Assembly: GCA_965242885.1 (NCBI GenBank)
Contig: CBDETH010000008.1
Span: forward strand, 150,286-214,285
Length of the DNA stretch: 64,000 nt
Origin: a bacterium
Lineage (GTDB): Bacteria > JAAXHH01
Reading direction: 5' to 3'
The position numbers and the translations under genes are program-made. Below are positions 57,627 through 57,707 of the stretch, one piece after another. Positions within the stretch are counted from its first letter, which is position 1. The number at the start of each line of letters is the position of its first letter. The notes under the pieces were generated by a model. That model was not told the origin of the DNA. It did no database searches and was given only the letters and a program-made list of their open reading frames with translations.

Positions 57627-57707
57627 AACCGCATCAGAACACCCTCGCGTCCCCTTAGCGGACCCGCACCCCGCGGACCTTTAAGCGTCCCCGTGCTGCT
57701 TCTGATC
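57627..57707 (+). promoter_or_regulatory. Conserved leader element copy 2 (degenerate: a 1-nt deletion in the terminator 3' arm and no U-tract)
   Basis: ~95% identical to 50195-50274 by direct comparison. Confidence 0.5.

Follow-up and report, generated by a model that had tools for sequence, protein, structure and literature searches.

The DNA analyzed here, a stretch of 64,000 nt referred to as the window, harbors an element of about 80 nt that occurs twice on the plus strand, once before a block of genes that includes a giant repeat protein and once before a giant RHS-type gene. Such an arrangement raises the question of whether the element is a repeat that merely accompanies these genes or an RNA that controls them, and, in the latter case, by what means. 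The initial annotation had left this undecided between a shared regulatory RNA motif, with attenuation in the first copy and a constitutive or degenerate form in the second, and a small locus-specific mobile repeat.

Two copies of one element in the window

Copy 1 (50195-50274) and copy 2 (57627-57707) were found to be ~94% identical by MAFFT alignment and in the repeat search (repeat family D10), and 93.8% identical by blastn over 81 columns (E 1e-29). This is in agreement with the ~95% identity annotated initially, and the differences listed there proved exact. From copy 1 to copy 2, GAATA is changed to GAACA and TTCAA to TTTAA, GTCCC carries an extra C (GTCCCC), and CA in the loop is replaced by TG (GTGCCAC to GTGCTGC). 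The 3' arm GGCACGGGG (50282-50290) becomes GGCAGGGG (57718-57725), and the run of six T residues at 50292-50297 becomes AACACAC. The sequence ATGTCC follows shortly after both copies, at 50298 and 57733, as had been noted before. The conserved unit is longer than 80 nt and extends from a 5' hairpin (50165-50185 in copy 1 and 57588-57608 in copy 2) through to the start codon. A covariance model built from homologues scored copy 1 at 157.7 bits and copy 2 at 103.1 bits, the next match in the window reaching 15 bits; the 64-kb window thus contains exactly two copies, far beyond chance expectation. No tRNA or tmRNA was detected in the window by ARAGORN. The parts of the two copies are as follows.

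50125-50153, plus strand: sigma70-type promoter of copy 1, TTGACA-17-TATAGT, matching the consensus at 11 of 12 positions
50165-50185, plus strand: 5' hairpin H0 of copy 1 (GCCCGUGC/GCGCGGGC), from pairing across 39 sequences
50201-50207, plus strand: AUCAGAA strand of helix P1 of copy 1, complementary to UUCUGAU (50267-50273) in the terminator loop
50214-50254, plus strand: three-way-junction core of copy 1, near-invariant, from the RNAalifold consensus
50256-50297, plus strand: intrinsic terminator of copy 1, CCCCGUGCC / GGCACGGGG followed by A and U6, with 9 bp and a 17-nt loop, -17.7 kcal/mol in isolation
57588-57608, plus strand: 5' hairpin H0 of copy 2 (GCCCGU...ACGGGC), from the sequence and the model alignment
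57646-57687, plus strand: three-way-junction core of copy 2, from the alignment and the covariance model
57689-57725, plus strand: platform hairpin of copy 2, CCCCGUGCU / GGCAGGGG, with one bulged G and no U tract, -13.9 kcal/mol, followed by AACACAC and ATG

The AUCAGAA strand of copy 2 lies at 57633-57639, and a second AUCAGAA is present at 57611-57617. The initial annotation was without the promoter, the 5' hairpin and the conserved zinc-ribbon gene upstream.

Distribution of the element and genes placed downstream

The genes that follow the two copies are given below.

50298-50648, plus strand: small membrane protein of 116 aa, weakly holin-like (PHROG holin phrog_1296, E 0.002)
50752-51132, plus strand: Peptidase_M15_3 endolysin-like gene (Pfam; PHROG endolysin phrog_894, 8e-26)
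51182-56641, plus strand: 1819-aa Big_9 repeat protein (Pfam; repeats D5/D6)
56638-57558, plus strand: 306-aa paralogue of the C-terminus of the 1819-aa protein (repeats D5/D6)
57733-64000, plus strand: giant RHS-type gene after copy 2, open past the end of the window (RHS_repeat 1.3e-17, DUF6443)

The RHS assignment of the last gene bears out the initial annotation. Homologues of the 116-aa protein are mostly annotated from an internal ATG at 50439, giving 69 aa. A Peptidase_S74 tail-fibre chaperone domain had been expected in the C-termini shared by the 1819-aa and 306-aa proteins; it was not reported by Pfam.

Related copies were reached via homologues of the small membrane protein and by one pattern scan of GTDB genomes. 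The GTDB pattern was too permissive, most of the at least 118 loci being chance matches in high-GC actinomycetes, and copy counts are lower bounds. By blastn and covariance model (47-166 bits), the family comprises at least ~40 copies, and control loci gave no covariance-model matches. The source genomes are uncultivated MAGs throughout: MAGs of Candidatus Latescibacterota and MAGs labelled Gemmatimonadota or "bacterium" carry the element, a shorter form is present in prophages of Dehalococcoidia MAGs, and further hosts are two more Mu-like prophage lineages and one IMG/VR viral contig (L141). At least four copies are present in the 3.9-Mb chromosome OY762445.1 and at least three in SB0665_bin_8, and the loci L004, L005/L006 and L007 hold two each. 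The element is therefore not locus-specific, in contrast to the repeat considered in the initial annotation. A scan of JGI metagenomes gave only two true matches, suggesting that the element is rare outside the lineages found. The plasmid and reference-phage collections held no match to the leader; in IMG/VR, the exact canonical core was absent, and a degenerate pattern retrieved the one viral contig. Rfam 15 gave no match at gathering score for the window or for L106, L134 and L136, and for 50050-50400 even a limit of E 10 brought up no relevant family. No earlier account of a leader of this kind was met with in the literature library searched. The ~80-nt repeat thus forms the core of a previously undescribed family of structured 5' leader RNAs of ~135 nt.

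All of the ~40 copies are co-oriented with the downstream gene, with the start codon abutting within a few nucleotides, and the ORF after the hairpin is conserved as a protein across copies. The downstream genes belong to a few classes: the block of holin-like, M15 and giant Big_9 genes; RHS-type giants, which share homologous N-terminal regions across classes; a DUF1353 protein (PHROG tail assembly chaperone, 4.5e-16); and, in Dehalococcoidia, a Peptidase_S78 prohead protease together with a Phage_capsid protein. A plain interspersed repeat, scattered over many unrelated positions with no consistent gene context, does not match this small set of phage-like and toxin classes. A cis-regulatory RNA motif on the plus strand, shared by the 5' sides of both gene blocks as the initial annotation had suggested, is in keeping with the co-oriented family and its few downstream gene classes.

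Structure of the leader RNA

The copy-1 leader has a minimum free energy of -54.7 kcal/mol (z = -3.7), and the terminator is part of the minimum-energy fold. In the 5' hairpin H0, the sequence varies freely and the pairing is kept: seven of the eight pairs are changed on both sides among 39 sequences, and many G:U pairs are compatible with RNA of the plus strand only. The H0 alignment was fitted to the model, so these covariation counts lean towards the model. The core of ~50 nt is almost invariant, and the three-way junction proposed by RNAalifold fits every variant. It is composed of an outer 3-bp stem (CGC:GCG) and the two hairpins GUCC-CUUAGC-GGAC and CCGC-ACCCC-GCGG, with an invariant ACC and then a variable single-stranded linker of 3-30 nt. 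The loop CUUAGC is variable (C-YNNA-GC, 6-7 nt), the loop ACCCC has 5 nt, and both are closed by C-G pairs. One U separates the end of the junction from the GC-rich hairpin.

When the junction and terminator were evaluated together on 28 unique sequences, 99.1% of the cells were paired, and none of 500 shuffles reached the observed score. Compensatory changes occur in the first junction hairpin (GUCC:GGAC to GGCC:GGUC, GCCC:GGGC and GCGC:GCGC), and U:A is replaced by C:G in the terminator stem of L134 and L136. Three pairs of the junction and terminator show double changes, and the single changes are wobble-compatible only. Within the core helices, covariation is seen in 2 of 11 pairs; the covariation support for the junction is real, though it comes from few lineages because the core is almost invariant. 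Helix P1 (AUCAGAA:UUCUGAU) shows wobble-compatible changes and a few double changes; it belongs to the Latescibacterota clade only and is not present in Dehalococcoidia, L134 or L136. A first model, in which hairpins Ha and Hb lay within P1 and Hb competed with the terminator, was demoted: Hb, the hypothetical ON-state helix, showed no covariation, and the only variation in it breaks a pair.

These pairing data bear on whether the element could act as DNA, i.e., as a REP/MITE-like repeat, a recombination site or an operator devoid of RNA function. The high identity between copies, the direct repeats flanking a 7.4-kb block and the motif GCGKMCC, found four times in the core, would suit such an element. 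It is nevertheless hardly credible, as the copies keep a constant orientation and spacing relative to the start codon and the compensatory and G:U changes fit pairing in the RNA of one strand. The element also lacks terminal inverted repeats and is absent from the plasmid and phage reference collections, and two copies in 64 kb, like the uniform orientation of all ~40 copies abutting start codons, set it apart from REP/MITE repeats. Nor is the small mobile repeat of the initial annotation supported.

Promoter and expression platforms

Of 35 unique copies, 21 share the promoter motif TTGACN-17-TATAG[TA]. The predicted transcript of copy 1 starts near 50160 and the terminator ends at 50297, directly followed by the ATG at 50298. 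Copy 2 is placed after the stop codon of the 306-aa gene, and a promoter scan before it revealed no promoter-like site. The core is kept in this and other promoterless copies (L005b, L059 and L076) and also in Dehalococcoidia, L134 and L136, where the promoters differ. The persistence of the core without a promoter and with differing promoters indicates that the RNA core, and not the promoter, is the constrained part. The promoter spacer is partly conserved (ACTAAACAT-TGTATAGT), and a similar ACTAAACAT occurs in the promoter region of the zinc-ribbon gene itself.

Two types of platform were observed between the core and the start codon. The commonest ending is a perfect stem of 8-9 bp followed by a U-rich tract, and at least five U residues within 8 nt after the stem were counted in 30 of 35 unique copies, whereas copy 2 has none in 8. 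A GC-rich stem with a U tract before the ORF, i.e., an intrinsic terminator, is present in copy 1 and not in copy 2. The copy-1 terminator was not called by a simple terminator scan; its loop is unusually large, at 17 nt. The attenuation annotated initially for copy 1 thus has a terminator-based platform to act through. The second type, a U-less hairpin containing a Shine-Dalgarno (SD) sequence, is found in copy 2 of the window and in L005b, L037, L123 and L141. In copy 2, L005b/L006b, L037 and L123, all located before RHS-type giants, GAACAGAAAGGCAGGGGA is followed by 3-7 non-U bases and then the start codon. Copy 2 had been regarded as decayed or degenerate; conservation of the U-less GAACAGAAAGGCAGGGGA arm before orthologous RHS genes of four other genomes (L005/L006, L037 and L123) shows that it is not a product of simple decay. 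Judging from the sequence, the copy-2 platform is probably an alternative, translational one, namely an SD sequestor.

An SD-like GGGGA lies within the stem of copy 2, 7 nt before the ATG, and the GGGGA of the 3' arm of copy 1 is likewise 7 nt before the AUG. The distance from the 3' arm to ATG or GTG is 6-8 nt in nearly all Latescibacterota copies, so the GGGG(A) of the arm is placed like a Shine-Dalgarno sequence. With this arm held in the hairpin, the hairpin can block translation in both types and, in the U-tract type, can also terminate transcription. The Dehalococcoidia copies carry a terminator and a separate GAGGAGG as the SD sequence. The U tract is kept in the leaders of orthologous RHS genes in L089 and L007b, suggesting that the two platform forms interconvert in evolution. 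For copy 1, the terminator fold (-54.7 kcal/mol) was predicted to be favored over an alternative open fold (-42.3 kcal/mol) by ~12 kcal/mol; by this estimate, the default state should be OFF and a factor would be needed for ON.

A promoter and a terminator bracketing a structured RNA of ~135 nt, in several near-identical copies per genome, would also be expected of a family of trans-acting sRNAs, in which the two signals define an sRNA gene and the adjacency to other genes is secondary. This is improbable, since some copies lack the promoter and some the terminator, the ORF after the hairpin is conserved as a protein, and in nearly every Latescibacterota copy the start codon is located 6-8 nt past a hairpin whose 3' arm doubles as an SD-like sequence.

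It could also be that no dedicated ligand binds the RNA: the short terminated transcript would then be a by-product of promoter-loaded antitermination of the lambda Q type or of another processive kind, with the ribbon protein acting on DNA or RNA polymerase, or the structure would set no more than mRNA stability and a basal level of attenuation. In lambda, the PR'-tR' layout parallels the order of promoter, terminator and long operon seen here. A strong promoter is followed by a terminator within ~135 nt and then by long operons and 6-kb genes, much as the strong promoter, short terminated leader (PR'-6S RNA-tR') and long phage late operons are arranged in the lambda Q system; promoter-near hairpins in front of terminators also recall HK022 put RNA. 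The partly conserved spacer, with the similar ACTAAACAT at the zinc-ribbon gene, fits a factor of the Q kind, and a 5'-terminal hairpin is a common stabilizer. However, Q acts via DNA and a promoter-proximal pause, whereas the conserved part here is RNA that is kept in the promoterless copies and where promoters differ. Antitermination alone cannot explain the U-less platforms; put RNA needs no protein and targets terminators further downstream; and neither the lambda nor the HK022 system shows sequence or Rfam similarity to the element. Such an explanation is therefore considered doubtful.

A Com-like zinc-ribbon protein encoded near the element

The gene upstream of copy 1 is described as follows.

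49703-50032, plus strand: double zinc-ribbon protein gene, 109 aa, candidate trans-acting partner (tblastn synteny; Com-like C-terminal ribbon)

The C-terminal ribbon of the window protein shows the motif TDxxPRCWKCGRxLGxYxSRPWSxRCRRCKAxN. Across phyla, the pattern TDxxPRCW[KR]C.R.L....[ST]RPW...C.RCKA.N is kept, with 58-67% identity; this conservation runs parallel to that of the near-invariant RNA core. By tblastn, 13 unique Latescibacterota loci were found to carry the gene on the same strand, ~100 nt ahead of H0; these include three of the four copies known among the at least four in OY762445.1. It stays tightly adjacent even where other parts of the phage module are gone. Among the Dehalococcoidia prophages, each of the three with enough flank has it 1.35 kb upstream from the element, as a gene for a single ribbon of 58 aa (MAERTAAPQTDYKPRCWRCNRVLAIRLSRPWEMRCRRCKAANVREV...). 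In all, four lineages carry the element together with a homologue of this gene. The order of the Mu-like head module there is terminase, portal, Phage_Mu_F, zinc-ribbon gene, toxin-antitoxin pair, element, protease and capsid. About 15 element loci are without a zinc-ribbon gene within the flanks examined, so that action in trans must be assumed. If a trans-acting factor serves the leader, the ribbon gene immediately upstream of copy 1 is the strongest candidate to encode it.

A profile of the ribbon (A4) retrieved 35 proteins, mostly of 45-65 aa, four of which are named "phage FluMu protein Com" by JGI. Alignment of the family profile with Mu Com (AF083977) by hhalign gave a probability of 83% over 28 columns with 39% identity. 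Pfam PF10122 (Zn_ribbon_Com) was the top match of P0054, P0035 and P0056 with 21.9, 20.5 and 20.2 bits, below the cut-off of 22.9, the Mu Com control scoring 36.8. The C-terminal ribbon of the window protein was among 12 A4 members scanned; PF10122 was not in its table, and only 2 of the 12 reached E 0.029. Searches of Pfam, PHROGs, NCBIfam and PDB sequences gave no significant name for the window protein, whose link to Com runs via the family profile only; in the profile search of PDB, no entry bearing the name Com came up, even with E allowed to reach 10. Short zinc ribbons resemble one another easily, a caveat that applies to sub-threshold similarity to Com.

If protein and RNA work together, the loci of distant homologues of the protein should hold divergent elements. 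This prediction was borne out downstream of the zinc-ribbon gene in L136 (P0035), L134/L135 (P0048) and L141. The zinc-ribbon gene of L136 overlaps the end of Phage_Mu_F, and an element at 6474-6596 (25.3 bits, E 6e-5) lies directly before the next gene. The arrangement is the same in L134/L135 and L141, where the variable linker takes up an additional hairpin of 21 nt and the stems show compensatory changes. More distant Com-like proteins (L137-L140) had no recognizable element in the flanks examined; their targets, if any, differ, as does that of Mu itself. Shared phage ancestry could be a partial cause of the co-occurrence of ribbon gene and element in prophages.

The presence of a candidate protein partner also bears on whether the junction is instead the aptamer of a riboswitch for a metabolite or signalling nucleotide, the ribbon gene being a mere syntenic neighbor. 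As in riboswitches, one conserved sensor domain is joined to more than one platform type, a terminator or an SD-sequestering helix, the compact junction directly abuts the platform, and multiple copies per genome form a regulon. Giant adhesin genes, moreover, are classical targets of second-messenger riboswitches. No known class matches, however, even at E up to 10 in Rfam, and no metabolic theme is apparent among the regulated genes, which have structural and lysis functions of phages or encode toxins. The helices of 3-4 bp, near-invariant across phyla, suit recognition by a protein or a sequence in dual use better than a ligand pocket, and the zinc-ribbon gene remains close to the element even where the rest of the phage module is missing. 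A small-molecule riboswitch thus appears unlikely.

Proposed mode of action and comparison with known systems

The family, its anatomy and orientation, the two platform types and the co-occurrence with the zinc-ribbon gene are shown by the analysis. The promoter-independent RNA core, the non-metabolic genes and the strand-specific pairing argue against the rival explanations. The reading preferred here, to which a probability of roughly 55% is assigned, is that the leader is a sensor core gating phage-derived, late-type genes, and that the Com-like zinc-ribbon protein opens its hairpin. That the protein binds the RNA, in which sense it regulates and how precisely the ON state is folded are inferred, by analogy to Mu.

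Transcription would start at the strong, constitutive-looking promoter, copy 2 being read through from the upstream operon. The RNA is expected to fold by default into the 5' hairpin, the small three-way junction and the GC-rich hairpin that directly abuts it. Where a U tract follows, as in copy 1, this hairpin would terminate transcription, and in all Latescibacterota copies, copy 1 and copy 2 included, it would bury the SD-like G-rich 3' arm 6-8 nt before the start. The Com-like protein, encoded just upstream of the copy-1 promoter, may bind the invariant junction (GGACC / GCGUCCCC) and open the hairpin or prevent it from forming, in the way that Mu Com acts at the translation-inhibition structure (TIS) of mom; the stem to be opened would be CCCCGUGC:GCACGGGG. 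Opening would relieve termination and free the ribosome-binding site. The putative regulon thereby switched on would include the holin-like/M15 lysis cassette, the giant Ig-repeat protein, the RHS giants and the tail-assembly-chaperone-like gene and, in Mu-like prophages, the head protease and capsid.

In Mu, the mom start is concealed within a structure, and Com uncovers it by binding to a short hairpin alongside (PMC6483171). The motif recognized by Com, 5'-CC(N)2-3GAG-3', sits in a hexaloop with a closing C-G pair (PMC6483171). The system described here is similar in that the gene for a small zinc-ribbon protein of the CCCC type lies shortly before the target in a Mu-type phage context, a short structured RNA lies directly 5' of a hairpin hiding translation start signals, and the predicted effect is activation through hairpin opening. 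It differs from the Com target in having a three-way junction and other loops, with neither CC(N)2-3GAG nor a GAG in the loops. The inhibitory hairpin is often an intrinsic terminator as well, and there are many trans targets (head, lysis, adhesin and RHS genes), in contrast to the one overlapping mom gene of Mu. In Latescibacterota, the protein carries a further zinc ribbon at its N-terminus, and its sequence similarity to Com is sub-threshold.

As in the BglG/SacY-RAT, ANTAR, PyrR and TRAP leaders, the terminator is the default fold, its 5' arm borders on or is overlapped by a small conserved RNA structure, and a dedicated protein is presumed to tip the balance. Unlike in these protein-dependent attenuators, a zinc ribbon would act as the partner, no protein of the CAT/PRD, ANTAR, PyrR or TRAP type accompanies the element, and some copies use SD sequestration without a U tract. 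The ANTAR leaders of Ramesh et al. from 2012 reportedly consist of two tandem hairpins with A1/G4 hexaloops, the second overlapping the terminator. The A1/G4 rule is not followed here, the second hairpin has no terminator overlap in the supported fold, and no ANTAR-domain gene was present among the neighbors listed. By analogy, the element appears to work most like Mu Com/mom and the protein-dependent attenuators and is a demonstrated member of neither.

Implications for the family and its hosts

A broader reading, put forward tentatively, is that the element and the Com-like protein constitute a portable post-transcriptional switch of phage origin, carried from phylum to phylum by Mu-like phages. 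Latescibacterota of the sponge and coral type may have domesticated it into a chromosomal regulon, in which the holin/endolysin-like cassette is coupled to giant Ig-repeat adhesins and multiple RHS toxins, to their production and possibly also to a lysis-type release. Were this the case, Com-type regulators would be widespread RNA-binding activators with their own classes of RNA motif, beyond Mu mom.

The covariance model and the zinc-ribbon profile are usable now for annotating the regulon in metagenomes. If the proposed model holds, the leader would represent a new family of cis-regulatory RNAs that comes with its own candidate partner protein, a pair that can be reduced to an RNA of 50 nt and a protein of 58 aa. 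The Com/mom paradigm, known from one gene of Mu, would then reach a chromosomal regulon as well as genes for late structural proteins in the Mu-like prophages of other phyla, and a regulatory handle on the giant RHS toxins and adhesins of uncultivated symbionts would be provided.

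A conserved leader of the zinc-ribbon gene

The zinc-ribbon gene (49703-50032, +), which encodes the candidate trans-acting partner of the element, was found to carry a conserved leader of its own, spanning 49575-49702. This leader includes the following features:

49575-49702, leader of the zinc-ribbon gene, starting with TTGACA
49639-49665, first hairpin, GUGCAGGA...UCCUGCAU, located 3' of TTGACA
49672-49688, second hairpin, CCGUCC-GGAA-GGACGG, continuing into the SD GGAGAAAGG

In L001, L118, and L011, ACGGGAC-UGUCGC-GUCCCGU takes the place of the first hairpin and, like the element, contains CGCGUCCCGUGC. 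The GUCC/GGAC stem common to the leader and the element suggests that the zinc-ribbon gene may be autoregulated. The locus L004 harbors a full but divergent copy of the element (L004:9307-9438, 69 bits) directly 5' of the zinc-ribbon gene itself and another copy 3' of it. This arrangement, noted in one relative, could possibly constitute a positive feedback loop. In a Dehalococcoidia Mu-like prophage, the Com-like gene is separated from the element by an inserted toxin–antitoxin pair (L106:4562-5388), made up of a Gp49-like toxin and its antitoxin of the HI1420-type HTH kind. A HicAB pair occupies the corresponding position in L138, the locus of a more distant Com-like protein.

Conservation past the terminator and possible additional P1 strands

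The ∼20 nt lying 3' of the terminator (50298-50318), [AG]TGCCYTTWCCCGACAMA, were found to be conserved as nucleotides, also in L116:7484-7660, L101, and L069, and this conservation holds even where the stretch is out of frame with the downstream gene. In L116, for example, the stretch reads ATG CCT TAA, and the actual start lies 50 nt further on, after GGGAGGAG. Since the stretch is kept regardless of frame, either the transplanted regulatory cassette would extend past the hairpin or the stretch would have a role at the RNA level.

On the 5' side of copy 2, CAUCAGAA is present twice, at 57611-57617 and 57633-57639. The second element copy of L007 (L007b, L007:17928-18073) contains CAUCAGAA in three copies, as well as an additional AUCAGAA within an enlarged terminator loop that is able to pair locally with UUCUGAU. 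These repeated strands look like evolutionary tinkering with P1, the AUCAGAA:UUCUGAU pairing between the element strand and the terminator loop.

Short repeats and a palindrome were located near three stop codons:

49263-49335, tandem repeat of 3 × 23 nt, GCCTGAATGGCGACCGAGCCCGC, just 3' of the stop codon of the esterase-like gene
50040-50085, tandem repeat of ∼3 × 15 nt, CCACTGCAGTAACGG, just 3' of the zinc-ribbon stop codon, at a distance of 40-85 nt on the 5' side of the copy-1 promoter
57564-57577, perfect palindrome GCCGCUCGAGCGGC, lying between the 306-aa gene, whose stop codon it directly follows, and copy 2

Proteins encoded by the operon

The 1819-aa protein (51182-56641) consists of ∼17 Big_9/cadherin-like repeats of 90-100 residues each with the motif FSDPDGD.L.YS, showing DNA identity of up to 88%. 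Its C-terminal ∼100 residues (56226-56530) are paralogous to those of the following 306-aa protein (57134-57441), with 75-77% nucleotide identity. The conserved motif VYRL.GNVGIGV falls within this shared part, as does a coiled-coil tail, and a Pfam search returned no family match for the part.

The genes at the head (50298-51132) of the operon for this giant Ig-repeat protein and the RHS giant encode a small membrane protein resembling holins (PHROG holin, E 0.002) and an endolysin-like M15 peptidase (PHROG endolysin, 8e-26). Two start codons in the same frame allow a small membrane protein of 116 aa or, from 50439, of 69 aa, and it is mostly the shorter form that databases call. Type 10 secretion is the lysis-cassette-dependent release of toxins, and the placement of holin-like and M15 genes ahead of the giant Ig-repeat and RHS genes recalls, by analogy, such a system.
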